Program-made: the position numbers and the translations under genes | Assembly: GCA_964016885.1 (NCBI GenBank) | Contig: OZ024741.1 | Coordinates: 61,752,001 to 61,816,000, forward strand | Length of the DNA: 64,000 bases | Reading direction: 5' to 3' | From: Eledone cirrhosa | Taxonomy: Eukaryota | In this document: positions 19,240 to 64,000 of the stretch, one piece after another | Layout: each line of letters starts with the position of its first letter | How positions within the stretch are numbered: the stretch's first letter is position 1 | Notes under the pieces: model-generated | Seen by the model: the letters and a program-made list of their open reading frames with translations, nothing else | The model's database searches: none | What the model was told of the DNA's origin: nothing

Positions 19240-21835
19240 TAGCTTAGTTGTCAGCGACCTCACGGTCAAAACTAGACGAACCCGGAAACAGAGGCCAACC
19301 TGGAGAAGAAAGATCTGGAAGCTGAAAGTCCCCTCAACCAGTAACAGATTTTAAAGATATTTTACTCAACGCCTACGACAGTAAAGAAGAACAGATACAG
19401 ACATTTAATGTAGAAGAGAACTGGGACTTCCTAAAAAATAATTTACTAGAGGCGACGGATGAGGTCTGTGGCTGGAGTAAGACCTCAAGCAGGAGGAGAG
19501 TGACTTGGTGGTGGAACAATAAGGTAGATGAAGCAGTTAAGGCCAAGAGACAGGCATGGAAAGAATGGAAGAACGGGGGGAGCAGGGTACATTACATAGA
19601 GACCAAGAGGGAAGCTAGGCGACAAGTATACTTAGCTAGGAGGGAAGCAGAGAAGAGAAAATTCAAGCATGTTTTACAACGTGAGGACCAGAAACAGGAG
19701 GTATTCAAGATTGCGAGGCAGTGTGTCAGAGATAGTTGCGATGTCATTGGAGAGAAGTGTATCTGGAATGATAAAGGTGAGCTTGCCCTCACAAGTGCTG
19801 AGAAGAAAGATGCATGGAAGAGTCATTATGATAGATTACTAAATGAGGAGAATGCATGGGAAGAAGAGACCCTACCCCAAGTAGACCCTATAGAGGGACC
19901 AGCAGTACAAGTCAGCAGCAGCGTAGTAAGTAAGGCAATCAAAGATATGAAGATGGGGAAGGCAACCGGTCCATCGGGTATAGCTGCCGAGATGCTGAAG
20001 GCATCTGGGTCTGTAGGTCACACTATAACCACACGTATCGTTAACCAGGTAATACTAGAAGGGGCCATACCAAAAGATTGGTGCAGTAGCATCATTGTCA
20101 ACTGCTACAAAGGTAAAGGCGATGCACTAGATAGAGGAAACTATAGAGGTATAAAGTTGATGGACCAGGTCATGAAAGTAACAGAAAGAGTTATAGCACA
20201 GCTGATTAGGGACCGGGTGAATATAGACGAGATGCAATTTGGGTTTGTACCAGGAAGAGGCACCACTGATGCCCTCTTCCTTGTGAGGCAATTACAGGAA
20301 AAGTACCTAGCTAAAAGTAAGCCACTCTACTTGACATTTGTGGACCTTGAGAAAGCCTTTGACAGAGTTCCTAGTGCTGTAATCTGGTGGGCTCTTAGAA
20401 AACTAGGAGTAGATGAATGGCTTGTGAAAGCGGTACAAGCCATGTATAGGGGAGCAGTCAGCAAAGTTAGGATTAGCAATGAGTATAGCGAGGAATTTAG
20501 CGTACAGGTTGGGGTCCACCAGGGCTCTGTTCTTAGCCCTCTCCTGTTCATCATAGTCCTGCAGGCAATAACGGAGGAGTTTAAGACCGGATGCCCATGG
20601 GAACTCCTGTATGCTGATGACCTCGCACTCATAGCTGAATCTATGGTAGAACTAGAGAATAAATTCCAAACCTGGAAGCAGGGACTAGAGAGAAAGGGTC
20701 TCAAAGTCAACATGACAAAGACTAAGGTCCTTGTAAGTAGACGAGAAAACAGAACCCAGATCCCCTCAGGGAAATGGCCTTGCTCAGTATGTAGGAAAGG
20801 TGTAGGTAGGAACTCCATTCTCTGCCCCAAATGCAAACAATGGGTACACAAGACATGTAGCGGGATCTCAGGAAGCTTAATTAAGAATGTAGGAGTCACA
20901 TGCAGCAGCTGTGCTGAAACAGCAAGCAGCAAACAGCCACAGGAAACAAGTACCACCAATCTCTGGGAGGGCCCTGTAGAAACAGTAGACAGCTTCTGCT
21001 ACCTAGGTGACCGAATTAGCAGCGGAGGTGGGTGTTCAGAAAGTACAATAACTAGGGTAAGAACGGGATCGAAGAAGTTTAGGGAACTACTACCACTGCT
21101 AGCTGCAAAAGGCTTCTCCCTCAGAATGAAAGGCAGACTGTATGATGCGTGTATCCGAACAGCGATGTTGCATGGTAGTGAGACCTGGGCGCTGAAGGTG
21201 GAAGACTTACGTAGATTAGAGAGAAACGAAGCCTGCATGCTCCGATGGATGTGTAACAGTAATATACGTGAACGACAAAGCATAAATGAATTGAGAGAGA
21301 GACTGAGCATAAGAGGAATCAAATGCTGTGTGCAGGAGAGGCGGTTGCGCTGGTATGGACATGCGATGCGTATGAAGGATGACAGCTGCATAAAAAGGTG
21401 CAGAGCACTAGAAGTTGATGGAAACCGCGGAGTGGGGAGACCCAAGATGACCTGGGATGAGGTGATAAAAGCCGACCTTACCCAATTAAACCTCTCAAAG
21501 ACAATGACACACGACCGTGACTTCTGGCGTCACGCAGTAATACAGAGTACCCGACCTCCCATGGGTACATGCTGAAGCATATAAACAATATGCCCCCACA
21601 CCCCCCAACGCAAGGTGGTCGTGGAGGTGCCACGGCAAAAAAAGCACCCAGCCCACACTGTAAAAGAGGTTGGTGTTAGGAAGGGCATCCAGCTGTAGAA
21701 ATCAAGCCAGATCAGTTCCTGTATGAGCAAGGCATGGTCAGTCGACCAGACACTGCACACAACAGGACAACCTGTCTAACCCATGCTAGCGTGGAAGAAC
21801 GGACGTAAAACGGTGATGATGATGATGATGATAAT
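19240..21835 (+). mobile_element. RTE-clade LINE, family B, 5'-truncated (lacks endonuclease)
   Basis: Long RT ORF, 3'UTR and GGACGTAAAACG(GTGAT)(GAT)n tail; begins at the end of the EN region. Confidence 0.95.
19500..21575 (+). CDS. Retrotransposon ORF remnant: reverse transcriptase (YADD at 20610-20621), PHD-like zinc finger, RTE C-terminal domain
   Basis: 691-aa open frame with QFGFVPGRGTTDA, FVDLEKAFDRV, GVHQGSVLSPLLF, YADD, FCYLG, RRLRWYGH and GRPKMTW. Start is not the native one; upstream part is disrupted. Confidence 0.88.
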   Translation: MTWWWNNKVDEAVKAKRQAWKEWKNGGSRVHYIETKREARRQVYLARREAEKRKFKHVLQREDQKQEVFKIARQCVRDSCDVIGEKCIWNDKGELALTSAEKKDAWKSHYDRLLNEENAWEEETLPQVDPIEGPAVQVSSSVVSKAIKDMKMGKATGPSGIAAEMLKASGSVGHTITTRIVNQVILEGAIPKDWCSSIIVNCYKGKGDALDRGNYRGIKLMDQVMKVTERVIAQLIRDRVNIDEMQFGFVPGRGTTDALFLVRQLQEKYLAKSKPLYLTFVDLEKAFDRVPSAVIWWALRKLGVDEWLVKAVQAMYRGAVSKVRISNEYSEEFSVQVGVHQGSVLSPLLFIIVLQAITEEFKTGCPWELLYADDLALIAESMVELENKFQTWKQGLERKGLKVNMTKTKVLVSRRENRTQIPSGKWPCSVCRKGVGRNSILCPKCKQWVHKTCSGISGSLIKNVGVTCSSCAETASSKQPQETSTTNLWEGPVETVDSFCYLGDRISSGGGCSESTITRVRTGSKKFRELLPLLAAKGFSLRMKGRLYDACIRTAMLHGSETWALKVEDLRRLERNEACMLRWMCNSNIRERQSINELRERLSIRGIKCCVQERRLRWYGHAMRMKDDSCIKRCRALEVDGNRGVGRPKMTWDEVIKADLTQLNLSKTMTHDRDFWRHAVIQSTRPPMGTC

Positions 21836-22705: not shown

Positions 22706-22958
22706 TATATATATATATATATAAAATCATCATTATCACCAAATTTGGCTGTTCTGACCTGGAGAGGGATGCTTTCTGTCAGGATTGAATGCGCAAGACA
22801 AAATATGCATCAGAGTGGCAGCCATAGGACTCCATCTGGGCTTATAGAATCTTTCCCTATTTTTCTTCATGATGTTCAAGTAAAAGAAAGAAAATGTGTA
22901 AGATAAACTGTAGCTGTGATAGAAAGGAAATAAAAATATAACAATGTTTCAATCTTAC

Positions 22959-23054
22959 CTGTTTACACATTAATTAAAACCAACAATAAACCACTTTAAA
23001 TGTTTCATATTCACAATAATATTGAAGAACTTACCTGAAAAAGAAAACAAAAGA
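22959..23054 (-). other. Candidate recursive splice site with 76-nt cryptic RS-exon
   Basis: Minus strand TCTTTTGTTTTCTTTTTCAG/GTAAGTT (AG at 23036-23035, GT at 23034-23033); second donor CAG/GTAAGA at 22959/22958. Confidence 0.65.
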
Positions 23055-23222
23055 TATTCTTTAAAGATTTTTTAAATGAAAGGATTTCATATGAGATGTT
23101 TTAATCAGTTATATTATATGTTAAGGATTAATCATTTTAACCATTCAAAAAACACAAAAACTGTTAAATTCCCTTTACATTTATCATTTATTTCCTGGTG
23201 ACATAACTTTCATTACATTCTT

Positions 23223-23365
23223 TGTGACCTGGTCACTGACACAGTGTAATTGCAATGCAACTCTATCAGTGACCAGGTCACAGACAGTGCAACATTGTCA
23301 CTGACACAGTTTCACAGTACATGTGGAAGTGTGTCAGAGACCAGGTCAGAGACAGTGTGACCTGG
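23223..23365. repeat. Cluster of short palindromic repeats (GTGACCWGGTCAC, ACAGTG)
   Basis: Perfect 17-bp inverted repeat 23223-23239/23266-23282 plus further partial copies. Confidence 0.75.
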
Positions 23366-25070: not shown

Positions 25071-28035
25071 ATCATCATCATCATCATCATCATCAACGTT
25101 TAACGTCCGTGTTCCACGCTTGCATGGGTTTGGACGGGGGTAGTCCCACTTGAGGCAAGAGTGATTGTCTTGCTCGCATAGGACTGTCTGGCAGGTTTTC
25201 TACAGTTGGATGCCCTTCCTAACACCAACCACATTTACAGTGTGGGTCTGGGAGGTTTTTACCGTGTTGCCTACACGGCCACATTACAGCGTGGACTGTG
25301 TGTTTTTTTGTCGTGACACCTACACGATCTCATTTGTTTCGGCCTCGATGGCGCGGCACCAACATAACTTTACATAGAACGGGGTGGTGTGGATGGGGTG
25401 GGGGTGGGGGTGGTGGGACGGGGTGTATTTTGTTAGAGATGCCTACTGGCTGGAGTAGGTTTTACTATATATTTAGGTAAGGCGGGTCTTCTCTGTTACT
25501 GAGTACCGCCAAAGGTCTCGGTCCAGTGACATTGGCTTGGAGAGGTGTAAGTGTGTGATGTCGGAGTTTATCAGCTCGTCCCAGGTTTTTCTAGGTCTGC
25601 CTATTCCGTGACTACCATCTATCTTTATTGCCCTGCACTTTGTTATACAGCTATCGACTTTCATGCGAATCACGTGTCCATACCAACGTAGCCTTCTCTC
25701 GAGTAAACAACATCTGATCCCTCTTATCTCTAATTTTTTCCTTAGTTCGTTTATGCTTTGCCGTTCACGTATATTACTGTTACACATCCAGCGGAGCATG
25801 CAAGCTTCGTTCCTCTCTAGTCTGCGTATATCCTCTGCACACAATGCCCAGGTCTCACTGCCATGCAGCATTGCTGTTCGTATGCAGGCATCGTACAACC
25901 TGCCTTTCATTTTTAGGGAGAACCCTTTAGCAGCTAATAGTGGTATAAGCTCTCTGAACTTTTTCCAACCAGTTCTGACTCTAGCTACAGTACTTTCAGA
26001 GCACCCTCCCCCACTGCTGATTTTATCGCCCAGGTAACGGAAGCTGTCCACTATTTCTATAGAACCCTCTGCGCAATTGAAAGAGCTAGTATTTTGTGGG
26101 CACTTGCTGCTACTTATTGCACCAGAACACCGGCCACATGTAAAATCTATGTTCTTAGTTAGCTTACCTGTGATCCCACTACATCTTTTATGCACCCATA
26201 CTTTGCATTTAGGACATAAAATGGAGTTTCTACCTACGCCTTTCCTACACACCGAGCACGACCATTTCCCAGAAGGGACCGCCGCCTTGTTTTCTTTCCT
26301 ACAAACTAGTACTTTGGTCTTAGCCAGGTTAATTTTAAGTCCTTTTGACTCTAGGCCGTACTTCCATGTTTGGAATTTCTTCTCTAGCTCGGCCATTGAT
26401 TCCGCTATGAGTGGCAGGTCGTCTGCGTATAGGAGTTCCCATGGGCAGCCTGTCTTGAACTCCTCTGTTATAGCCTGAAGGGCAATAATAAATAGTAGGG
26501 GGCTGAGAACAGAGCCCTGATGGACGCCAACTTTTACGCTAAACTCTTCACTATATTCGTTGTTAATTCTAACCTTGCTGACTGTTTCTTTATACATGGC
26601 TTGTATAGCCCTCACAAGCCATTCGTCAACGCCTAGTTTTCTAAGAGCCCACCAGATAATGGAGCGGGGGACTCTGTCGAAGGCTTTCTCCAAGTCGACA
26701 AAAGCTAAGTAGAGGGGTTTACCTTTAGCTAGGTACTTCTCCTGTAGTTGTCGTACTATGAAAAGAGCGTCTGTGGTACTTTTGCCTGACACAAACTGTC
26801 TTTCTCCCATTTATTCTTCTCATTTAGTAGCCTTTCATAGTGACACTTCCAAGCTACCTTCTTATCAGCGTCGGTGATGGCAAGTGTGCCATCGTCGTTT
26901 AGTACACACTTCTCCCTGGCAATATCACGGTTTTCCTTGACGCATTGCCTAGCAATCCTGAACACCTCACGTTTTTGGTCATCGCGTTGTAGAACATGCT
27001 TGAACTTTCTTTCCTCAGCTTCCCTTCTTGCTAAGTACACTTGTCTCCTAGCTTCCCTCCTGGCCACTTGATAGTCTTCTCTACTTCCCCCATCCCGCCA
27101 TACTTTCCAAGCCTGCTTTTTGGCCTTAATTGACCCCTCCACCTTACTGTTCCACCACCATGTTACTCTCCTCCTGCCTACAGGCCTGCTCCAGCCACAG
27201 ACTTCGTCTGTCGCCAACAGCAGGTTTGCTTTCAGAAATTCCCACTCTCCCTCTGTATTGTCCGACTCTAAATGTTCTTCCTTAATGTCGAAAGAATCAA
27301 GTAATATGCTTTGAAATTTATTCCTGGCTGTGGGGTCCTTTAGCTTCCATATTTTTCTCCTGAGGATAGTCCTCTTCTGCTGTCGAGTACGTCTCGTCCT
27401 GACTATGAGGTCGCTAATTATCAGTCTATGTTGGGAGGTGCATTCTTCATGGGGGAGGGATTTAGTGTTTACAACAGACACTCTGTCACGTCTTCTGGTA
27501 AGGATATAATCTACCTGGCTTGTGTGTTCCCCGGATCTATAGGTGATCAGGTGACTGTCACGTTTTTTGAAGTTAGTGTTACAGATAGTTAGGTTATTTG
27601 CATCACAGAATTCCAGGATTCTGGAGCCTTCCTCATTTCTAGTACCAAACCCATAGCCTCCATGGATTTCGTCGTAGCCGTCACAATGTTGTCCAACGTG
27701 ACCATTTAGGTCGCCTGCGATAATTATATAGTCACTGTCGGATATTTGGGAGGTAGTTAGCATCAGTGTCTCATAGAATCTGTCTTTTATAGTGCCGGGC
27801 AGTCCGGATTGGGGTGCGTACGCAGATATTACTGTCACCGTAGTTCTATTGAGGACAAGTCGTATTTTAATTATTCTGTCGTTCACTCTATTTACGTCTA
27901 TTATCTTATCTGCCCACTTTTCTGCTACCATGATTCCTACTCCACCCAGTCCATCGTCGTTTCCCACCCAGAAAAGCTTATAACATCGTTTTTTACCCTC
28001 AATGTACCTAGCAGACCCACCCCTCCACCTGGTCT
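25071..28035 (-). mobile_element. RTE family A copy with APE endonuclease and RT, internal deletion, 5'-truncated
   Basis: ORF 26756-27967 has GVGI, SAYAPQ, AGDLNGHVG and QVDYIL (APE); ORF 25473-26810 has RT with YADD and PHD-like finger; (GAT)n tail at 25071-25094. Confidence 0.96.
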
Positions 28036-28040
28036 CTTAT

Positions 28041-45985: not shown

Positions 45986-46282
45986 ATTGACTGTGCCATT
46001 AATATTCTATAGATGTGATATTGACATATGACTATAGACAGTGTCATAAATATTCTATAGATGTGATATTGACATATGACTATCCACAGTGTCATTAATA
46101 TTCTATAGATGTGATATTGACATATGACTATCCACAGTGTCATTAATATTCTATAGATGTGATATTGACATATGACTATCCACAGTGTCATTAATATTCT
46201 ATAGATGTGATATTGACATATGACTATCCACAGTGTCATTAATATTCTATAGATGTGATATTTACATATGACTATCCACAGT

Positions 46283-47250
46283 CCAATCTCTGGGAGGGCT
46301 CTGTAGAAACAGTAGACAGCTTCTGCTACCTAGGTGACCGAATTAGCAGCGGAGGTGGGTGTTCAGAAAGTACAATAACTAGGGTAAGAACGGGATCGAT
46401 GAAGTTTAGGGAACTACTACCACTGCTAGCTGCAAAAAGCTTCTCCCTCAGAATGAAAGGCAGACTGTATGATGCGGGTATCCGAACAACAATGTTACAT
46501 GGTAGTGAGACCTGTGCGCTGAAGGTGGAAGACTTACGTAGATTAGAGAGAAACGAAGCCTGCATGCTCCGATGGATGTGTAATAGTAATATACGTGAAC
46601 GACAAAGCATAAATGAATTGAGAGAGAGACTGAGCATAAGAGGAATCAAATGCTGTGTGCAGGAGAGGCGGTTGCGCTGGTATGGACATGTGATGCGTAT
46701 GAAGGATGACAGCTGCATAAAAAGGTGCAGAGCACTAGAAGATGATGGAAACCGCGGAGTGGGGAGACCCAAGATGACCTGGGATGAGGTGATAAAAGCC
46801 GACCTTACCCAATTACACCTCTCAAAGGCAATGACACACGACCGTGACCTCTGGCGTCACGCAGCAAAACAGAGTACCCGACCTCCCATGGGTACAAGCT
46901 GAAGCATATAGACAATATGCCCCCACAACCCCCACCGCAAGATGGTCGTGGAGGTGCCACGGCAAAAAAGCACCCAGCCCACGCTGTAAAGTGGACGTGT
47001 AGGCGCCACGAAAAAGCACCCAGCACTCACTGTAAAGTGGACGTGTAAGCGCCACAAGGAAAGCACCCAGCACTCACTGTAAATGAGGTTGGTGTTAGGA
47101 AGGGAATCCAGCTGTAGAAATCAAGCCAAATCAGTTCCTGTATGAGCAAGGCATGGTCGGCCGACCAGACACTGCCCACAAGAGGACAACCCGTCTAACC
47201 CATGCTAGCGTGGAAAAACGGACGTAAAACGGTGATGATGATGATGATGA
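46283..47250 (+). mobile_element. 968-bp 5'-truncated RTE family B insertion in satellite, copy 1
   Basis: Homologous to 20956-21830; flanked by duplicated (A)CAGT; (GAT)n tail. Confidence 0.97.
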
Positions 47251-50200
47251 CAGTGTCATTAATATTCTATAGATGTGATATTGACATATGACTATAGACA
47301 GTGTCATTAATATTCTATAGATGTGATATTGACATATGACTATAGACAGTGTCATTAATATTCTATAGATGTGATATTGACATATGACTATCCACAGTGC
47401 CATTAATATTCTATAGATGTGATATTGACATATGACTATCCACAGTGTCATTAATATTCTATAGATGTGATATTGACATATGACTATCCACAGTGCCATT
47501 AATATTCTATAGATGTAATATTGACATATGACTATAGACAGTGTCATTAATATTCTATAGATGTGATATTGACATATGACTATAGACAGTGCCATTAATA
47601 TTCTATAGATGTGATATTGACATATGACTATAGACTGTATCATTAATATTCTATAGATGTGATATTGACATATGACTATCCACAGTGTCATTAATATTCT
47701 ATAGATGTGATATTGACATATGACTATAGACAGTGTCATTAATATTCTATAGATGTGATATTGACATATGACTATCCACAGTGCCATTAATATTCTATAG
47801 ATGTGATATTGACATATGACTATCCACAGTGTCATTAATATTCTATAGATGTGATATTGACATATGGCTATAGACAGTGTCATTAATATTCTATAGATGT
47901 GATATTGACATATGACTATCCACAGTGCCTTTAACATTCTATAGATGTGATATTGATATATGGCTATCCACAGTGTCATTAATATTCTATAGATGTGATA
48001 TTGACATATGACTATCCCCAGTGTCATTAATATTCTATAGATGTGATATTGACATATGGCTATAGACAGTGTCATTAATATTCTATAGATGTGATATTGA
48101 CATATGACTATCCACAGTGCCTTTAATATTCTATAGATGTGATGTTGATATATGGCTATCCACAGTGTCATTAATATTCTATAGATGTGATATTGACATA
48201 TGACTATCCACAGTGCCTTTAATATTCTATAGATGTGATATTGATATATGGCTATCCACAGTGTCATTAATATTCTATAGATGTGATATTGACATATGAC
48301 TATCCCCAGTGTCATTAATATTCTATAGATGTGATATTGACACATGACTATCCACAGTGTCATTAATATTCTATAGATGTGATATTGACATATGACTATA
48401 GACAGTGTCATTAATATTCTATAGATGTGATATTGACATATGACTATCCACAGTGTCATTAATATTCTATAGATGTGATATTGACATATGACTATCCACA
48501 GTGCCATTAATATTCTATAGATGTGATATTGACATATGACTATAGACAGTGCCATTAATATTCTATAGATGTGATATTGACATATGACTATAGACTGTAT
48601 AATTAATATTCTATAGATGTGATATTGACATATGACTATCCACAGTGTCATTAATATTCTATAGATGTGATATTGACATATGACTATAGACAGTGTCATT
48701 AATGTTCTATAGATGTGATATTGACATATGACTATCCACAGTGCCATTAATATTCTATAGATGTGATATTGACATATGACTATCCACAGTGTCATTAATA
48801 TTCTATAGATGTGATATTGACATTTGGCTATAGACAGTGTCATTAATATTCTATAGATGTGATATTGACATATGACTATCCACAGTGCCTTTAATATTCT
48901 ATAGATGTGATATTGATATATGGCTATCCACAGTGTCATTAATATTCTATAGATGTGATATTGACATATGACTATCCCCAGTGTCATTAATATTCTATAG
49001 ATGTGATATTGACATATGACTATCCACAGTGTCATTAATATTCTATAGATGTGATATTGACACATGACTATCCACAGTGTCATTAATATTCTATAGATGT
49101 GATATTGACATATGACTATAGACAGTGTCATTAATATTCTATAGATGTGATATTGACATATGACAATCCACAGTGCCTTAAATATTCTATAGATGTGATA
49201 TTGACATATGGCTATCCACAGTGCCTTAAATATTCTATATATGTGATATTGACATATGACTATCCGCAGTGTCATTAATATTCTATAGATGTGATATTGA
49301 CATATGACTATCCACAGTGCCATTTATATTCTATAGATGTCATATTGACATATGACTATCCACAGTGTCATTAATATTCTATAGATGTGATATTGATATA
49401 TGACTATCCACAGTGTCATTAATATTCTATAGATGTGATATTGACATATGCCTATCCACAGTGTCATTAATATTCTATAGATGTGATATTGACATATGAC
49501 TATAGACAGTGTCATTAATATTCTATAGATGTGATATTGACATATGACTATAGACAGTGTCATTAATATTCTATAGATGTGATATTGACATATGACTATA
49601 GACAGTGTCATTAATATTCTATAGATGTGATATTGACGTATGACTATCCACAGTGTCATTAATATTCTATAGATGTGATATTGACATATGACTATAGACA
49701 GTGTCATTAATATTCTATAGATGTGATATTGACATATGACTATCCACAGTGTTATTAATATTCTATAGATGTGATATTGACATATGACTATAGACAGTGT
49801 CATTAATATTCTATAGCTGTCATATTGACATATGACTATAGACTGTGTCATTAATATTCTATAGATGTGATATTGACATATGCCTATCCACAGTGCCATT
49901 AATATTCTATAGATGTGATATTGACATATGACTATAGACTGTGTCATTAATATTCTATAGATGTGATATTGACATATGCCTATCCACAGTGTCATTAATA
50001 TTCTATAGATGTGATATTGACATATGCCTATCCACAGTGTCATTAATATTCTATAGATGTGATATTGACATATGACTATCCACAGTGTCATTAATATTCT
50101 ATAGATGTGATATTGACATATGACTATAGACTGTGTCATTAATATTCTATAGATGTGATATTGACGTATGACTATAGACAGTGTCATTAATATTCTATAG

Positions 50201-53200
50201 ATGTGATATTGACGTATGACTATAGACAGTGTCATTAATATTCTATAGATGAGATATTGACATATGACTATAGACAGTGTCATTAATATTCTATAGATGT
50301 GATATTGACATATGACTATCCACAGTGTCATTAATATTCTATAGATGTGATATTGACATATGACTATCCACAGTGTCATTAATATTCTATAGCTGTCATA
50401 TTGACATAGGACTATAGACAGTGTCATTAATATTCTATAGATGTGATATTGACATATGACTATAGACAGTGTCATTAATATTCTATAGATGTGATATTGA
50501 CATATGACTATCCACAGTGTCATTAATATTCTATAGCTGTCATATTGACATATGACTATAGACTGTGTCATTAATATTCTATAGATGTGATATAGACATA
50601 TGACTATAGACTGTGTCATTAATATTCTATAGATGTGATATTGACATATGACTATAGACAGTGTCATTAATATTCTATAGATGTGATATTGACATATGAC
50701 TATAGACAGTGTCATTAATATTCTATAGATGTGATATTGACATATGACTATCCACAGTATCATTAATATTCTATAGATGTGATATTGACGTATGACTATA
50801 GACAGTGTCATTAATATTCTATAGATGTGATATTGACGTATGACTATCCACAGTGTCATTAATATTCTATAGATGTGATATTGACATATGACTATAGACT
50901 GTGCCATTAATATTCTATAGATGTGATATTGACATATGACTATAGACTGTGTTATTAATATTCTATAGATGTGATATTGACATATGACTATGGACAGTGT
51001 CATTAATATTCTATAGATGTGATATTGACATATGACTATCCACAGTGTCATTAATATTCTATAGATGTGATATTGACATATGACTATAAACAGTGTCATT
51101 AATATTCTATAGATGTGATATTGACATATGACTATAGACAGTGTCATTAATATTCTATAGATGTGATATTGACATCTGACTATAGACAGTGTCAGTAATA
51201 TTCTATAGATGTGATATTGACAAATGACTATCCACAGTGCCATTAATATTCTATAGATGTGATATTGACATATGACAATATATAGTATCATTAATATTCT
51301 ATAGATGTGATATTGACATCTGACTATCCATAGTGTCATTAATATTCTATAGATGTGATATTGACATATGACTATCCACAGTGTCATTAATATTCTATAG
51401 ATGTGATATTGACATATGACTATAGACAGTGTCATTAATATTCTATAGATGTGATATTGACGTATGACTATAGACAGTGTCATTAATATTCTATAGATGT
51501 GATATTGACATATGACTATCCACAGTGTCATTAATATTCTATAGATGTGATATTGACATCTGACTATCCATAGTGTCATTAATATTCTATAGATGTGATA
51601 TTGACATATGACTATATACAGTGTCATTAATATTCTATAGATGTGATATTGACATCTGACTATCCATAGTGTCATTAATATTCTATAGATGTGATACTGA
51701 CATATGACTATAGACAGTGTCATTAATATTCTATAGATGTGATATTGACATATGGCTATAGACAGTGTCATTAATATTCTATAGATGTGATATTGACATC
51801 TAACTATCCATAGTGTCATTAATATTCTATAGATGTGATATTGACATATGACTATAGACAGTGTCATTAATATTCTATAGATGTGATATTGACATATGAC
51901 TATAGACAGTGTCATTAATATTCTATAGATGTGATATTGACATATGACTATCCACAGTGTCATTAATATTCTATAGATGTGATATTGACATATGACTATA
52001 GACAGTGTCATTAATATTCTATAGATGTGATATTGACATCTGACTATCCACAGTGTCATTAATATTCTATAGATGTGATATTGACGTATGACTATAGACA
52101 GTGTCATTAATATTCTATAGATGTGATATTGACATCTAACTATCCATAGTGTCATTAATATTCTATAGATGTGATATTGACATATGACTATAGACAGTGT
52201 CATTAATATTCTATAGATGTGATATTGACATATGACTATAGACAGTGTCATTAATATTCTATAGATGTGATATTGACATATGACTATCCACAGTGTCATT
52301 AATATTCTATAGATGTGATATTGACGTATGACTATAGACCGTGTCATTAATATTCTATAGATGTGATATTGACGTATGACTATAGACAGTGTCATTAATA
52401 TTCTATAGATGTGATATTGACGTATGACTATAGACAGTGTCATTAATATTCTATAGATGTGATATTGACATATGACTATAGACTGTATCATTAATATTCT
52501 ATAGATGTGATATTGACATATGACTATCCACAGTGTCATTAATACTCTATAGATGTGATATTGACATATGACTATAGACAGTGTCATTAATATTCTATAG
52601 ATGTGATATTGACGTATGACTATAGACCGTGTCATTAATATTCTATAGATGTGATATTGACGTATGACTATAGACAGTGTCATTAATATTCTATAGATGT
52701 GATATTGACATATGACTATCCACAGTATCATTAATATTCTATAGATGTGATATTGACGTATGACTATAGACCGTGTCATTAATATTCTATAGATGTGATA
52801 TTGACGTATGACTATAGACAGTGTCATTAATATTCTATAGATGTGATATTGACGTATGACTATAGACAGTGTCATTAATATTCTATGGATGTGATATTGA
52901 CGTATGACTATAGACAGTGTCATTAATATTCTATAGATGTGATATTGACGTATGACTATAGACAGTGTCATTAATATTCTATAGATGTGATATTGACATA
53001 TGACTATCCACAGTATCATTAATATTCTATAGATGTGATATTGACGTATGACTATAGACCGTGTCATTAATATTCTATAGATGTGATATTGACGTATGAC
53101 TATAGACAGTGTCATTAATATTCTATAGATGTGATATTGACATATGACTATCCACAGTGTCATTAATATTCTATAGATGTGATATTGACATATGACTATC

Positions 53201-53350
53201 CACAGTGTCATTAATATTCTATAGATGTGATATTGACATATGACTATCCACAGTGTCATTAATATTCTATAGATGTGATATTTACATATGACTATCCACA
53301 GTGTCATTAATATTCTATAGATGTGATATTGACATATGACTATCCACAGT

Positions 53351-54318
53351 CCAATCTCTGGGAGGGCTCTGTAGAAACAGTAGACAGCTTCTGCTACCTA
53401 GGTGACCGAATTAGCAGCGGAGGTGGGTGTTCAGAAAGTACAATAACTAGGGTAAGAACGGGATCGATGAAGTTTAGGGAACTACTACCACTGCTAGCTG
53501 CAAAAAGCTTCTCCCTCAGAATGAAAGGCAGACTGTATGATGCGGGTATCCGAACAACAATGTTACATGGTAGTGAGACCTGTGCGCTGAAGGTGGAAGA
53601 CTTACGTAGATTAGAGAGAAACGAAGCCTGCATGCTCCGATGGATGTGTAATAGTAATATACGTGAACGACAAAGCATAAATGAATTGAGAGAGAGACTG
53701 AGCATAAGAGGAATCAAATGCTGTGTGCAGGAGAGGCGGTTGCGCTGGTATGGAAATGTGATGCGTATGAAGGATGACAGCTGCATAAAAAGGTGCAGAG
53801 CACTAGAAGATGATGGAAACCGCGGAGTGGGGAGACCCAAGATGACCTGGGATGAGGTGATAAAAGCCGACCTTACCCAATTACACCTCTCAAAGGCAAT
53901 GACACACGACCGTGACCTCTGGCGTCACGCAGCAAAACAGAGTACCCGACCTCCCATGGGTACAAGCTGAAGCATATAGACAATATGCCCCCACAACCCC
54001 CACCGCAAGGTGGTCGTGGAGGTGCCACGGCAAAAAAGCACCCAGCCCACGCTGTAAAGTGTACGTGTAGGCGCCACGAAAAAGCACCCAGCACTCACTG
54101 TAAAGTGGACGTGTAAGCGCCACAAGGAAAGCACCCAGCACTCACTGTAAATGAGGTTGGTGTTAGGAAGGGAATCCAGCTGTAGAAATCAAGCCAAATC
54201 AGTTCCTGTATGAGCAAGGCATGGTCGGCCGACCAGACACTGCCCACAAGAGGACAACCCGTCTAACCCATGCTAGCGTGGAAAAACGGACGTAAAACGG
54301 TGATGATGATGATGATGA
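53351..54318 (+). mobile_element. 968-bp 5'-truncated RTE family B insertion in satellite, copy 2
   Basis: Same 5' breakpoint, tail length and flanks as copy 1. Confidence 0.97.
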
Positions 54319-57300
54319 CAGTGTCATTAATATTCTATAGATGTGATATTGACATATGACTATAGACAGTGTCATTAATATTCTATAGATGTGATATTGA
54401 CATATGACTATAGACAGTGTCATTAATATTCTATAGATGTGATATTGACATATGACTATCCACAGTGCCATTAATATTCTATAGATGTGATATTGACATA
54501 TGACTATCCACAGTGTCATTAATATTCTATAGATGTGATATTGATATATGACTATCCACAGTGCCATTAATATTCTATAGATGTAATATTGACATATGAC
54601 TATAGACAGTGTCATTAATATTCTATAGATGTGATATTGACATATGACTATAGACAGTGCCATTAATATTCTATAGATGTGATATTGACATATGACTATA
54701 GACTGTATCATTAATATTCTATAGATGTGATATTGACATATGACTATCCACAGTGTCATTAATATTCTATAGATGTGATATTGACATATGACTATAGACA
54801 GTGTCATTAATATTCTATAGATGTGATATTGACATATGACTATCCACAGTGCCATTAATATTCTATAGATGTGATATTGACATATGACTATCCACAGTGT
54901 CATTAATATTCTATAGATGTGATATTGACATATGGCTATAGACAGTGTCATTAATATTCTATAGATGTGATATTGACATATGACTATCCACAGTGCCTTT
55001 AACATTCTATAGATGTGATATTGATATATGGCTATCCACAGTGTCATTAATATTCTATAGATGTGATATTGACATATGACTATCCCCAGTGTCATTAATA
55101 TTCTATAGATGTGATATTAGACATATGGCTATAGACAGTGTCATTAATATTCTATAGATGTGATATTGACATATGACTATCCACAGTGCCATTAATATTC
55201 TATAGATGTGATATTGACATATGACTATCCACAGTGTCATTAATATTCTATAGATGTGATATTGACATTTGGCTATAGACAGTGTCATTAATATTCTATA
55301 GATGTGATATTGACATATGACTATCCACAGTGCCTTTAATATTCTATAGATGTGATATTGATATATGGCTATCCACAGTGTCATTAATATTCTATAGATG
55401 TGATATTGACATATGACTATCCCCAGTGTCATTAATATTCTATAGATGTGATATTGACATATGACTATCCACAGTGTCATTAATATTCTATAGATGTGAT
55501 ATTGACACATGACTATCCACAGTGTCATTAATATTCTATAGATGTGATATTGACATATGACTATAGACAGTGTCATTAATATTCTATAGATGTGATATTG
55601 ACATATGACAATCCACAGTGCCTTAAATATTCTATAGATGTGATATTGACATATGGCTATCCACAGTGCCTTAAATATTCTATATATGTGATATTGACAT
55701 ATGACTATCCGCAGTGTCATTAATATTCTATAGATGTGATATTGACATATGACTATCCACAGTGCCATTTATATTCTATAGATGTCATATTGACATATGA
55801 CTATCCACAGTGTCATTAATATTCTATAGATGTGATATTGATATATGACTATCCACAGTGTCATTAATATTCTATAGATGTGATATTGACATATGCCTAT
55901 CCACAGTGTCATTAATATTCTATAGATGTGATATTGACATATGACTATAGACAGTGTCATTAATATTCTATAGATGTGATATTGACATATGACTATAGAC
56001 AGTGTCATTAATATTCTATAGATGTGATATTGACATATGACTATAGACAGTGTCATTAATATTCTATAGATGTGATATTGACGTATGACTATCCACAGTG
56101 TCATTAATATTCTATAGATGTGATATTGACATATGACTATAGACAGTGTCATTAATATTCTATAGATGTGATATTGACATATGACTATCCACAGTGTTAT
56201 TAATATTCTATAGATGTGATATTGACATATGACTATAGACAGTGTCATTAATATTCTATAGCTGTCATATTGACATATGACTATAGACTGTGTCATTAAT
56301 ATTCTATAGATGTGATATTGACATATGCCTATCCACAGTGCCATTAATATTCTATAGATGTGATATTGACATATGACTATAGACTGTGTCATTAATATTC
56401 TATAGATGTGATATTGACATATGCCTATCCACAGTGTCATTAATATTCTATAGATGTGATATTGACATATGCCTATCCACAGTGTCATTAATATTCTATA
56501 GATGTGATATTGACATATGACTATCCACAGTGTCATTAATATTCTATAGATGTGATATTGACATATGACTATAGACTGTGTCATTAATATTCTATAGATG
56601 TGATATTGACGTATGACTATAGACAGTGTCATTAATATTCTATAGATGTGATATTGACGTATGACTATAGACAGTGTCATTAATATTCTATAGATGAGAT
56701 ATTGACATATGACTATAGACAGTGTCATTAATATTCTATAGATGTGATATTGACATATGACTATCCACAGTGTCATTAATATTCTATAGATGTGATATTG
56801 ACATATGACTATCCACAGTGTCATTAATATTCTATAGCTGTCATATTGACATAGGACTATAGACAGTGTCATTAATATTCTATAGATGTGATATTGACAT
56901 ATGACTATAGACAGTGTCATTAATATTCTATAGATGTGATATTGACATATGACTATCCACAGTGTCATTAATATTCTATAGCTGTCATATTGACATATGA
57001 CTATAGACTGTGTCATTAATATTCTATAGATGTGATATAGACATATGACTATAGACTGTGTCATTAATATTCTATAGATGTGATATTGACATATGACTAT
57101 AGACAGTGTCATTAATATTCTATAGATGTGATATTGACATATGACTATAGACAGTGTCATTAATATTCTATAGATGTGATATTGACATATGACTATCCAC
57201 AGTATCATTAATATTCTATAGATGTGATATTGACGTATGACTATAGACAGTGTCATTAATATTCTATAGATGTGATATTGACGTATGACTATCCACAGTG

Positions 57301-59795
57301 TCATTAATATTCTATAGATGTGATATTGACATATGACTATAGACTGTGCCATTAATATTCTATAGATGTGATATTGACATATGACTATAGACTGTGTTAT
57401 TAATATTCTATAGATGTGATATTGACATATGACTATGGACAGTGTCATTAATATTCTATAGATGTGATATTGACATATGACTATCCACAGTGTCATTAAT
57501 ATTCTATAGATGTGATATTGACATATGACTATAAACAGTGTCATTAATATTCTATAGATGTGATATTGACATATGACTATAGACAGTGTCATTAATATTC
57601 TATAGATGTGATATTGACATCTGACTATAGACAGTGTCAGTAATATTCTATAGATGTGATATTGACAAATGACTATCCACAGTGCCATTAATATTCTATA
57701 GATGTGATATTGACATATGACAATATATAGTATCATTAATATTCTATAGATGTGATATTGACATCTGACTATCCATAGTGTCATTAATATTCTATAGATG
57801 TGATATTGACATATGACTATCCACAGTGTCATTAATATTCTATAGATGTGATATTGACATATGACTATAGACAGTGTCATTAATATTCTATAGATGTGAT
57901 ATTGACGTATGACTATAGACAGTGTCATTAATATTCTATAGATGTGATATTGACATATGACTATCCACAGTGTCATTAATATTCTATAGATGTGATATTG
58001 ACATCTGACTATCCATAGTGTCATTAATATTCTATAGATGTGATATTGACATATGACTATATACAGTGTCATTAATATTCTATAGATGTGATATTGACAT
58101 CTGACTATCCATAGTGTCATTAATATTCTATAGATGTGATACTGACATATGACTATAGACAGTGTCATTAATATTCTATAGATGTGATATTGACATATGG
58201 CTATAGACAGTGTCATTAATATTCTATAGATGTGATATTGACATCTAACTATCCATAGTGTCATTAATATTCTATAGATGTGATATTGACATATGACTAT
58301 AGACAGTGTCATTAATATTCTATAGATGTGATATTGACATATGACTATAGACAGTGTCATTAATATTCTATAGATGTGATATTGACATATGACTATCCAC
58401 AGTGTCATTAATATTCTATAGATGTGATATTGACATATGACTATAGACAGTGTCATTAATATTCTATAGATGTGATATTGACATCTGACTATCCACAGTG
58501 TCATTAATATTCTATAGATGTGATATTGACGTATGACTATAGACAGTGTCATTAATATTCTATAGATGTGATATTGACATCTAACTATCCATAGTGTCAT
58601 TAATATTCTATAGATGTGATATTGACATATGACTATAGACAGTGTCATTAATATTCTATAGATGTGATATTGACATATGACTATAGACAGTGTCATTAAT
58701 ATTCTATAGATGTGATATTGACATATGACTATCCACAGTGTCATTAATATTCTATAGATGTGATATTGACGTATGACTATAGACCGTGTCATTAATATTC
58801 TATAGATGTGATATTGACGTATGACTATAGACAGTGTCATTAATATTCTATAGATGTGATATTGACGTATGACTATAGACAGTGTCATTAATATTCTATA
58901 GATGTGATATTGACATATGACTATAGACTGTATCATTAATATTCTATAGATGTGATATTGACATATGACTATCCACAGTGTCATTAATACTCTATAGATG
59001 TGATATTGACATATGACTATAGACAGTGTCATTAATATTCTATAGATGTGATATTGACGTATGACTATAGACCGTGTCATTAATATTCTATAGATGTGAT
59101 ATTGACGTATGACTATAGACAGTGTCATTAATATTCTATAGATGTGATATTGACATATGACTATCCACAGTATCATTAATATTCTATAGATGTGATATTG
59201 ACGTATGACTATAGACCGTGTCATTAATATTCTATAGATGTGATATTGACGTATGACTATAGACAGTGTCATTAATATTCTATAGATGTGATATTGACGT
59301 ATGACTATAGACAGTGTCATTAATATTCTATGGATGTGATATTGACGTATGACTATAGACAGTGTCATTAATATTCTATAGATGTGATATTGACGTATGA
59401 CTATAGACAGTGTCATTAATATTCTATAGATGTGATATTGACATATGACTATCCACAGTATCATTAATATTCTATAGATGTGATATTGACGTATGACTAT
59501 AGACCGTGTCATTAATATTCTATAGATGTGATATTGACGTATGACTATAGACAGTGTCATTAATATTCTATAGATGTGATATTGACATATGACTATCCAC
59601 AGTGTCATTAATATTCTATAGATGTGATATTGACATATGACTATCCACAGTGTCATTAATATTCTATAGATGTGATATTGACATATGACTATCCACAGTG
59701 TCATTAATATTCTATAGATGTGATATTTACATATGACTATCCACAGTGTCATTAATATTCTATAGATGTGATATTGACATATGACTATCCACAGT

Positions 59796-60763
59796 CCAAT
59801 CTCTGGGAGGGCTCTGTAGAAACAGTAGACAGCTTCTGCTACCTAGGTGACCGAATTAGCAGCGGAGGTGGGTGTTCAGAAAGTACAATAACTAGGGTAA
59901 GAACGGGATCGATGAAGTTTAGGGAACTACTACCACTGCTAGCTGCAAAAAGCTTCTCCCTCAGAATGAAAGGCAGACTGTATGATGCGGGTATCCGAAC
60001 AACAATGTTACATGGTAGTGAGACCTGTGCGCTGAAGGTGGAAGACTTACGTAGATTAGAGAGAAACGAAGCCTGCATGCTCCGATGGATGTGTAATAGT
60101 AATATACGTGAACGACAAAGCATAAATGAATTGAGAGAGAGACTGAGCATAAGAGGAATCAAATGCTGTGTGCAGGAGAGGCGGTTGCGCTGGTATGGAA
60201 ATGTGATGCGTATGAAGGATGACAGCTGCATAAAAAGGTGCAGAGCACTAGAAGATGATGGAAACCGCGGAGTGGGGAGACCCAAGATGACCTGGGATGA
60301 GGTGATAAAAGCCGACCTTACCCAATTACACCTCTCAAAGGCAATGACACACGACCGTGACCTCTGGCGTCACGCAGCAAAACAGAGTACCCGACCTCCC
60401 ATGGGTACAAGCTGAAGCATATAGACAATATGCCCCCACAACCCCCACCGCAAGGTGGTCGTGGAGGTGCCACGGCAAAAAAGCACCCAGCCCACGCTGT
60501 AAAGTGTACGTGTAGGCGCCACGAAAAAGCACCCAGCACTCACTGTAAAGTGGACGTGTAAGCGCCACAAGGAAAGCACCCAGCACTCACTGTAAATGAG
60601 GTTGGTGTTAGGAAGGGAATCCAGCTGTAGAAATCAAGCCAAATCAGTTCCTGTATGAGCAAGGCATGGTCGGCCGACCAGACACTGCCCACAAGAGGAC
60701 AACCCGTCTAACCCATGCTAGCGTGGAAAAACGGACGTAAAACGGTGATGATGATGATGATGA
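59796..60763 (+). mobile_element. 968-bp 5'-truncated RTE family B insertion in satellite, copy 3
   Basis: Appears identical to copy 2; offset 6445 bp. Confidence 0.97.
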
Positions 60764-63700
60764 CAGTGTCATTAATATTCTATAGATGTGATATTGACAT
60801 ATGACTATAGACAGTGTCATTAATATTCTATAGATGTGATATTGACATATGACTATAGACAGTGTCATTAATATTCTATAGATGTGATATTGACATATGA
60901 CTATCCACAGTGCCATTAATATTCTATAGATGTGATATTGACATATGACTATCCACAGTGTCATTAATATTCTATAGATGTGATATTGATATATGACTAT
61001 CCACAGTGCCATTAATATTCTATAGATGTAATATTGACATATGACTATAGACAGTGTCATTAATATTCTATAGATGTGATATTGACATATGACTATAGAC
61101 AGTGCCATTAATATTCTATAGATGTGATATTGACATATGACTATAGACTGTATCATTAATATTCTATAGATGTGATATTGACATATGACTATCCACAGTG
61201 TCATTAATATTCTATAGATGTGATATTGACATATGACTATAGACAGTGTCATTAATATTCTATAGATGTGATATTGACATATGACTATCCACAGTGCCAT
61301 TAATATTCTATAGATGTGATATTGACATATGACTATCCACAGTGTCATTAATATTCTATAGATGTGATATTGACATATGGCTATAGACAGTGTCATTAAT
61401 ATTCTATAGATGTGATATTGACATATGACTATCCACAGTGCCTATAACATTCTATAGATGTGATATTGATATATGGCTATCCACAGTGTCATTAATATTC
61501 TATAGATGTGATATTGACATATGACTATCCCCAGTGTCATTAATATTCTATAGATGTGATATTAGACATATGGCTATAGACAGTGTCATTAATATTCTAT
61601 AGATGTGATATTGACATATGACTATCCACAGTGCCTTTAATATTCTATAGATGTGATATTGATATATGGCTATCCACAGTGTCATTAATATTCTATAGAT
61701 GTGATATTGACATATGACTATCCACAGTGCCTTTAATATTCTATAGATGTGATATTGATATATGGCTATCCACAGTGTCATTAATATTCTATAGATGTGA
61801 TATTGACATATGACTATCCCCAGTGTCATTAATATTCTATAGATGTGATATTGACACATGACTATCCACAGTGTCATTAATATTCTATAGATGTGATATT
61901 GACATATGACTATAGACAGTGTCATTAATATTCTATAGATGTGATATTGACATATGACTATCCACAGTGCCATTAATATTCTATAGATGTGATATTGACA
62001 TATGACTATAGACAGTGCCATTAATATTCTATAGATGTGATATTGACATATGACTATAGACTGTATCATTAATATTCTATAGATGTGATATTGACATATG
62101 ACTATCCACAGTGTCATTAATATTCTATAGATGTGATATTGACATATGACTATAGACAGTGTCATTAATGTTCTATAGATGTGATATTGACATATGACTA
62201 TCCACAGTGCCATTAATATTCTATAGATGTGATATTGACATATGACTATCCACAGTGTCATTAATATTCTATAGATGTGATATTGACATATGGCTATAGA
62301 CAGTGTCATTAATATTCTATAGATGTGATATTGACATATGACTATCCACAGTGCCTTTAATATTCTATAGATGTGATATTGATATATGGCTATCCACAGT
62401 GTCATTAATATTCTATAGATGTGATATTGACATATGACTATCCCCAGTGTCATTAATATTCTATAGATGTGATATTGACATATGACTATCCACAGTGTCA
62501 TTAATATTCTATAGATGTGATATTGACACATGACTATCCACAGTGTCATTAATATTCTATAGATGTGATATTGACATATGACTATAGACAGTGTCATTAA
62601 TATTCTATAGATGTGATATTGACATATGGCTATCCACAGTGCCTTAAATATTCTATAGATGTGATATTGACATATGACTATCCGCAGTGTCATTAATATT
62701 CTATAGATGTGATATTGACATATGACTATCCACAGTGCCATTTATATTCTATAGATGTCATATTGACATATGACTATCCACAGTGTCATTAATATTCTAT
62801 AGATGTGATATTGATATATGACTATCCACAGTGTCATTAATATTCTATAGATGTGATATTGACATATGCCTATCCACAGTGTCATTAATATTCTATAGAT
62901 GTGATATTGACATATGACTATCCACAGTGCCTTTAATATTCTATAGATGTGATATTGACATATGACTATAGACAGTGTCATTAATATTCTATAGATGTGA
63001 TATTGACATATGACTATAGACAGTGTCATTAATATTCTATAGATGTGATATTGACGTATGACTATCCACAGTGTCATTAATATTCTATAGATGTGATATT
63101 GACATATGACTATAGACAGTGTCATTAATATTCTATAGATGTGATATTGACATATGACTATCCACAGTGTCATTAATATTCTATAGCTGTCATATTGACA
63201 TATGACTATAGACTGTGTCATTAATATTCTATAGATGTGATATTGACATATGCCTATCCACAGTGCCATTAATATTCTATAGATGTGATATTGACATATG
63301 ACTATAGACAGTGTCATTAATATTCTATAGATGTGATATTGACATATGACTATCCACAGTGTCATTAATATTCTATAGCTGTCATATTGACATATGACTA
63401 TAGACTGTGTCATTAATATTCTATAGATGTGATATTGACATATGCCTATCCACAGTGTCATTAATATTCTATAGATGTGATATTGACATATGACTATCCA
63501 CAGTGTCATTAATATTCTATAGATGTGATATTGACATATGACTATAGACTGTGTCATTAATATTCTATAGATGTGATATTGACGTATGACTATAGACAGT
63601 GTCATTAATATTCTATAGATGTGATATTGACGTATGACTATAGACAGTGTCATTAATATTCTATAGATGAGATATTGACATATGACTATAGACAGTGTCA

Positions 63701-64000
63701 TTAATATTCTATAGATGTGATATTGACATATGACTATCCACAGTGTCATTAATATTCTATAGATGTGATATTGACATATGACTATCCACAGTGTCATTAA
63801 AATTCTATAGCTGTCATATTGACATAGGACTATAGACAGTGTCATTAATATTCTATAGATGTGATATTGACATATGACTATAGACAGTGTCATTAATATT
63901 CTATAGATGTGATATTGACATATGACTATCCACAGTGTCATTAATATTCTATAGCTGTCATATTGACATATCACTATAGACTGTGTCATTAATATTCTAT

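Follow-up and report, generated by a model that had tools for sequence, protein, structure and literature searches.

A putative recursive-splicing site with a short cryptic exon, and its copies, in a 417-kb intron of THUMPD3 in Eledone cirrhosa

We have analyzed a stretch of 64,000 nt of Eledone cirrhosa DNA, here called the window, corresponding to G000:C2:61,752,001-61,816,000 in a 3.0-Gb genome. All of it lies within intron 3 of the THUMPD3 gene, which is read from the minus strand. The intron is 417,439 nt in length with no N gap in the assembly, and the splice motif described below is on its sense strand, bearing out the proposal of an initial annotation made from the letters alone that the window is part of a giant minus-strand intron. 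Introns 4 and 5 are 153,500 and 80,004 nt long.

No host exon was recognized in the first 560 kb examined. A 677-nt exon located 151 kb upstream of the site on the minus strand encodes a THUMP domain, with its best match (70%) to the THUMPD3-like protein of Argonauta hians; comparing the THUMPD3 exon with solved structures gave no match. Mapping the Argonauta protein onto the genome gave eight exons, with a break of frame between two of them. The break predicted a microexon of 14 nt, which was then found where expected, being one of two genome-wide matches to the search pattern. The nine exons make an intact gene with canonical intron ends, encoding 527 aa with no internal stop, and 415 of the 519 residues aligned with the Argonauta protein (80%) are identical. 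Exon 3 ends in CAG, in phase 2. A 42-bp tandem repeat forms a 32-copy array (C2:61,354,806-61,356,089, minus strand) whose last unit provides the acceptor of exon 5, so that about 30 look-alike acceptors precede the true one.

The front of the gene is scattered in the assembly. Exon 1 is found at C2:58.296 Mb, 3.6 Mb from exons 3-9 and not on the side of them where it belongs; exon 2 lies at 130.5 kb on the unplaced scaffold C1182, and the remainder at C2:61.23-61.93 Mb. The order of this part is therefore most likely wrong, through a scaffolding error at N gaps. No overlap joining C1182, or the scaffold C1054 discussed below, to the chromosome was found among the ends compared, a set without the far end of C1182. 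Added together, the exon-bearing pieces give THUMPD3 a span of at least 1.0 Mb. The accessible text of PMC8599901 describes human THUMPD3-TRMT112 as making m2G6 in tRNA. The host is thus a housekeeping-type tRNA methyltransferase gene, not a neuronal one.

The features of the locus are as follows, with positions in the window unless a C2 coordinate is given.

1-64000, minus strand: part of THUMPD3 intron 3 (C2:61,508,387-61,925,825), containing none of the nine coding exons.
23132-23358, no strand assigned: dispersed repeat with inverted arms, 5' of the acceptor, common only to the copy at C2:58.14 Mb.
23035-23054, minus strand: 3' splice site (CAG) of the putative ratchet point with its pyrimidine tract, 150.8 kb 3' of the exon 3 donor.
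23029-23034, minus strand: GTAAGT directly after the acceptor, a putative recursive donor that would be rebuilt as CAG/GTAAGT on joining exon 3.
22959-23034, minus strand: candidate cryptic RS-exon of 76 nt, with stops in all three frames and a 3' end of CAG.
22971-22989, minus strand: U-rich core of 19 nt (TTATTGTTGGTTTTAATTA), the same in each of the four copies, even in the one that is 76% identical overall.
22953-22961, minus strand: downstream donor CAG/GTAAGA (GTAAGA at 22958-22953), which would define the cryptic exon.
22883-23357, minus strand: homology with the copy at C2:58,143,464 (80% over 505 nt).
C2:61,253,242-61,253,255, minus strand: THUMPD3 coding microexon of 14 nt, flanked by strong splice sites and required for the frame.

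The strong acceptor fused to a consensus donor and the second donor 76 nt later that the initial annotation had described are both present. At 23054-23035 there are 17 pyrimidine-rich nucleotides followed by CAG, and GTAAGTT begins directly after this at 23034. The interval to the second donor does have stops in every frame and, as had been stated, is not a multiple of three (76 mod 3 = 1), so it would break the reading frame. Placed after exon 3 it would encode arginine and then a stop (N-M-L-R-stop from the tail of exon 3 onward), upstream of the methyltransferase part of the protein. The claim that the site occupies a small non-repetitive island requires more revision. The element is not single-copy, having three homologous copies elsewhere, and the dispersed repeat, which is probably MITE-like, starts about 95 nt upstream (23132).

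The window has a single match to 11 pyrimidines followed by AG and GTAAGT, and none of 100 dinucleotide shuffles has any. We scored splice sites using a crude, untrained weight matrix of our own, on which all the scores given here depend. With a score of 29.2 the window site ranks first among the 1,199 AGGT sites on the sense strand of intron 3, the 1,352 antisense sites reaching 18.6 at most, and it ties with its own paralog for the top place among 9,099 AGGT sites in the 1.55 Mb examined. The three top scores in the intron (29.2, 25.7 and 25.6) all belong to sense-strand copies of the same element, that is, the window copy, the copy at C2:61,656,262 and, 68 nt upstream of the latter, its partial duplicate; the next is 19.2. 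The donor that would be rebuilt on exon 3 (CAG/GTAAGT) scores 13.1 versus 11.5 for the downstream donor (CAG/GTAAGA). A weaker AG/GTATGT at 12592 on the minus strand, with a donor 78 nt downstream, scores 19.2, close to the antisense background. Reads from runs X1-X3 over the element and its flanks give coverage of genomic-DNA type with the letters of paralogs mixed in and no splice joint listed, and exon 3 is nearly devoid of coverage in the filtered runs; both observations are neutral on expression.

A DNA search of the 3-Gb genome found four full homologous copies of this cassette including that of the window, plus two partial ones, and there are five exact matches to its pattern. The full copies outside the window are as follows.

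C2:61,656,262, sense strand of intron 3: exon identity of 73/76 with the window copy.
C2:58,143,464, same strand as exon 1: exon identity of 72/76 with the window copy.
Scaffold C1054:68,181: copy with an exon of 70 nt, 76% identical over the cassette.

The two partial copies adjoin the C2:61,656,262 copy in tandem. In the region C2:61,655,800-61,656,335 the acceptor/donor junction is partly duplicated 68 nt upstream of this second intron-3 cassette, and the 3' half of the cassette is present as two 184-bp tandem repeats, each having a donor-like end. The copy at C2:58.14 Mb is on the strand of exon 1 and 152 kb downstream of it, and is therefore likely to sit in THUMPD3 intron 1, an assembly gap standing in the way of a firmer tie. 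Scaffold C1054 is unplaced and has no recognized exon, and gaps block its tie to THUMPD3.

All four copies retain the pyrimidine tract, AG/GTAAG, the 19-nt core and CAG/GTAAG, the last being at +76 or +70, and 64 of 121 alignment columns are invariant. Between the window copy and that at C2:58.14 Mb the exon is better conserved than its flanks (72/76 versus 316/384 positions or gaps; Fisher p = 0.005), and the most diverged copy, that on C1054, keeps both junctions and the core. This is conservation between paralogs within one genome. The core may be a splicing-regulatory element or an internal branch region. A TTAAT branch-like segment directly upstream of the acceptor is present in the three other copies and deleted in that of the window. 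In the three chromosome copies the fused donor has a higher score than the donor of the exon; for the C1054 copy the downstream donor (12.4) exceeds the donor that would be rebuilt by exon 1 or 2 (10.5-10.6). For four pairs of copies no collinear homology of the flanks was found within 15 kb on either side, and the islands of homology extend over only about 110-500 nt. A genome-wide search with the double-junction pattern gave 10 matches, against 2 for the backward control; four belong to this cassette family and at least two are visibly tandem repeats. One metagenome scan, made as a check on other organisms, returned a single match with the pattern alone in common. The cassettes probably descend from a single ratchet module that was duplicated, and would have been kept because they are functional.

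The two cassettes placed in intron 3 are both on the sense strand, and divide it into segments of 150,792, 118,772 and 147,875 nt. When two cuts are placed at random, the largest piece is as small as this in 0.7% of trials, the test being post hoc. No cassette was found in the 153.5-kb intron 4, where the best of 535 sense AGGT sites scores only 14.8.

Sites of the same kind occur in a second gene, encoding a Kv4 (Shal/KCND-like) channel.

C12:45,297,997, 45,315,603 and 45,354,589, plus strand: three sites resembling ratchet points, each followed by a donor at +127 or +129 nt.

All are in sense orientation within an intron of 173 kb that includes one assembly gap. Two of them are 96% identical over 200 nt, with the third, weakly similar, between them, and there is a 75% relative on scaffold C1200. 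The Kv4 cassette gave no match to the THUMPD3 cassette profile, so this is an unrelated set. The intron is divided into segments of 87, 18, 39 and 29 kb, and this unevenness argues against any general 150-kb ruler.

Over the whole genome the pattern of twelve pyrimidines followed by AG-GTAAGT is found 79 times, and 57 times in a backward control. Two variants with a dead donor are found 66 times (backward control 172; some 20 resemble one repeat by eye) and 21 times (backward control 67). The raw count of 79 is thus no excess over 66, and an excess is seen only against 21 and against the backward-read controls; as a ratio to its own backward control the 79-site pattern differs 3.6- and 4.4-fold from the two variants. 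Neighboring sites within 1 Mb of each other make nine same-strand pairs and no opposite-strand pair, a division that was reached in none of 20,000 uniform placements, and the controls gave 0/2 and 1/0. We examined 20 of the 79 sites in detail, a non-random sample of 16 clustered, three small-scaffold and one single site that was reduced to 18 by dropping two near-duplicates. A donor lies 25-150 nt downstream in nine of these 18 (background 11-13%, p = 0.0002). All 18 have a YTNAY branch-like motif, with a background of 41-45%, a contrast partly inflated by the pyrimidine context. Three pairs of sites are homologous, on C12 (96% over 200 nt), at C2:373 Mb (94% over 558 nt) and at C4:229 Mb (69% over 270 nt). 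The members of the C2:373 Mb pair are 330 kb apart, and other same-strand pairs are seen at C2:81 Mb, C3:65 and 259 Mb, and C15:6 Mb. Four strong acceptor/GTAAGT sites, with donors 35-113 nt downstream, fall within 1.2 Mb on the minus strand at C4:227.98, 228.69, 228.86 and 229.16 Mb, a cluster that is likely to mark another giant gene.

The window site has every feature of a ratchet point that we tested at the level of sequence, i.e. YAG/GT, a place on the sense strand of a giant intron, a downstream donor and a stronger predicted rebuilt donor. We consider it probable that it is a ratchet point for recursive splicing whose cryptic exon is skipped, that such sites were spread by duplication, and that the intron is removed stepwise. 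The downstream CAG/GTAAGA would define the 76-nt exon, exon 3 would be joined to the acceptor at 23035, and the first 151 kb would leave. Joining would rebuild CAG/GTAAGT, predicted to beat the weaker downstream donor, so that the 76 nt would depart together with the next 119-kb segment on splicing to the homologous cassette at C2:61,656,262. The cycle would be repeated there, and the last 148 kb removed on splicing to exon 4, leaving no trace in the mRNA. Rare inclusion of the 76 nt would bring an immediate stop, and probably nonsense-mediated decay. Among the observations that weaken this interpretation are the atypical conservation of the exon, the absence of a raw genome-wide excess of such sites over one donor-dead variant (79 versus 66), the loss of the branch-like segment from the window copy, the reversed ranking of the donors in the C1054 copy, and the uneven segments of the Kv4 intron. 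The conserved exon content is atypical by comparison with flies, and could point to an exon that is expressed or regulated, or to gene conversion.

The 76 nt might mainly be a regulated poison or decoy exon, whose partial inclusion leads to nonsense-mediated decay or a delay in splicing, with subdivision of the intron a side effect. The strong sites at both ends, the stop immediately after exon 3 and an interior conserved between copies, as for a regulatory exon bound by protein, would all fit. Yet one such exon should be enough, whereas two copies divide the longest intron almost equally and the 153-kb intron has none. Moreover, in each of the three chromosome copies the fused donor scores above the other, and the same layout recurs in the unrelated Kv4 gene, so we regard a primarily regulatory exon as unlikely. 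The exon-like layout, with a conserved sequence and no conserved reading frame, is also what would be expected of exons of a nested non-coding transcript, or of a non-coding isoform of THUMPD3, on the same strand. But an ordinary exon does not need a consensus donor at its start, and all four copies have one. The regions around the copies share no further unique exon, Rfam has no match, and there is no stable fold (z = 0.36 and 0.91). Such a transcript is improbable.

The cassettes might alternatively be neutral remnants of duplicated or repeat DNA that carry splice signals as chance passengers. Some 60-70% of the region is repeat-masked, local duplication is common (the 184-bp tandem copies at C2:61.656 Mb and the 32-copy array at the exon 5 acceptor are examples), and the copies are not independent observations. 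Neutral decay does not readily account for an exon better conserved than its flanks, for the retention of exactly the splice signals in the most diverged copy, for the presence of merely four full copies in 3 Gb, or for the sense orientation shared by the two copies placed in intron 3 and the three sites in Kv4; we give it little credence. Lastly the conserved part might be a DNA element or a small RNA, the splice motifs being incidental. The invariant 19-nt AT-rich core is consistent with this, and TAATTA, which we take to be a homeodomain-type site, would be an example of a motif for such a core. The conservation is strand-specific, however, with peaks at both AG/GTAAG junctions and the pyrimidine tract, and neither an Rfam match nor a significant fold was obtained, making this very improbable. 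A ratchet point with a skipped cryptic exon remains the reading that we prefer.

Several other identities were rejected. The Rfam search of the cassette returned no match at the gathering score and the folding z-scores were not significant, which disposes of a structured RNA, mirtron or snoRNA. The 3' end of the cassette has what we presume to be a resemblance to nematode spliced leaders; a spliced-leader exon is contradicted by the conserved acceptor upstream and the absence, by eye, of an Sm-type site downstream. A coding exon, microexon or signal peptide is inconsistent with stops in all frames of three of the four copies, and THUMPD3 is complete without the 76 nt; the lone open frame, in the C1054 copy, is shifted relative to the others. 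The cassette does not appear to derive from a THUMPD3 exon, as no exon tested beat shuffled sequences (exon 5 and the microexon fell outside the valid test). A tandem gene family sharing an exon was rejected for want of a second shared unique exon, and a large segmental duplication because the four copy pairs lack collinear flanks within 15 kb. With four full and two partial copies this is not a high-copy mobile element, the upstream flank alone being a dispersed repeat.

The literature comparisons that follow refer to the accessible text of each source. Drosophila ratchet points (Ubx, kuz, Bx, luna; Duff et al., 10.1101/006163; Joseph et al., PMC8605326) similarly have a fused AG/GT in a very long intron, a short cryptic exon that is out of frame and has a donor downstream, a ratchet donor stronger than the exon donor, and several sites per intron. 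Fly recursive introns are 11-133 kb long with segments of 2.6-63.6 kb (10.1101/006163), whereas the intron here is 417 kb and its 119-151-kb segments are about twice the fly maximum. The fly cryptic exons are skipped by donor competition and their content is poorly conserved (PMC8605326), whereas the sites here are homologous copies with a conserved core. The fly sites have been shown by RNA, while those of THUMPD3 are known from sequence. Vertebrate RS-exons (Sibley et al. 2015, as given in PMC8605326 and PMC5126111) resemble the cassette in having YAG/GT defined through an exon that leads to decay if included; mammalian RS-exons contain stops (PMC5126111), and few mammalian sites are fully skipped (PMC8605326). 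The vertebrate sites are in long brain genes, unlike a tRNA methyltransferase gene in a mollusc, and the second case here is an ion-channel gene. Exon-distal recursive sites have also been described (Hoppe et al., PMC10156609). Like these, the 3' end of the cassette has YAG/GT after a T-rich, TTAAT-containing stretch, and one might speculate that it serves as a second acceptor; unlike them its AG has no adjoining pyrimidine tract and the distance from branch to AG is short. Poison cassette exons are likewise frame-breaking, stop-containing and conserved, but here the exon begins with a consensus donor and has spaced copies in giant introns.

In Octopus bimaculoides the long genes are neuronal, and the word 'recursive' is absent from the accessible text of that study (PMC7222433). 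In the literature searched, a set that excludes most subscription papers, we came across no account of recursive splicing in cephalopods or other molluscs, nor, judging from titles and the start of abstracts, of duplicated ratchet points or their origin by duplication. The accessible parts of PMC6110457 and PMC7222433 have nothing on how ratchet points originate. What would be new here is thus the lineage, the megabase housekeeping host, the length of the segments and the apparent copying of sites from one another.

This leads us to a broader and more tentative suggestion, to which we give somewhat less than an even chance. Ratchet points in this genome may be copyable modules of 100-500 nt, each comprising branch region, acceptor, fused donor, cryptic exon and second donor, that were duplicated into transposon-inflated introns and kept, separately and from differing cassettes in THUMPD3, Kv4 and at least two further loci. 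If so, a copied cassette would reset the length that is spliced in each step, to around 150 kb in THUMPD3, and even the gene of a housekeeping enzyme could exceed 1 Mb. Use of the sites would extend recursive splicing to the molluscs. It would also bear on how ratchet points originate during intron growth, a question that we did not find addressed in the literature searched. Since the sites are recognizable copies, the order in which they arose could be dated against intron expansion using octopod genomes. The 19-nt core is a candidate for an element by which a cryptic exon is recognized yet skipped, and the Kv4 cassettes could affect ion-channel expression in cephalopod neurons.

The remainder of the window is largely repetitive. 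Open reading frames of at least 110 aa within 5,300-47,000 look, by eye, like simple repeats or pieces of LINEs; satellite makes up the rest of the window. Translations judged by eye indicate LINE-like reverse-transcriptase fragments on both strands at 5549-7168, 19326-21575 and 25473-28036, and there are broken Helitron-like Rep/helicase frames, labeled in the same way, elsewhere in intron 3 at C2:61,726,200-61,730,500. A (TGG)n array occupies 7-5226. From 45993 to 64000 there is a 48-bp satellite of more than 300 units, in which an insert with a 46-bp period recurs at about 46,940, 54,010 and 60,455, suggesting a higher-order repeat of 6-7 kb.
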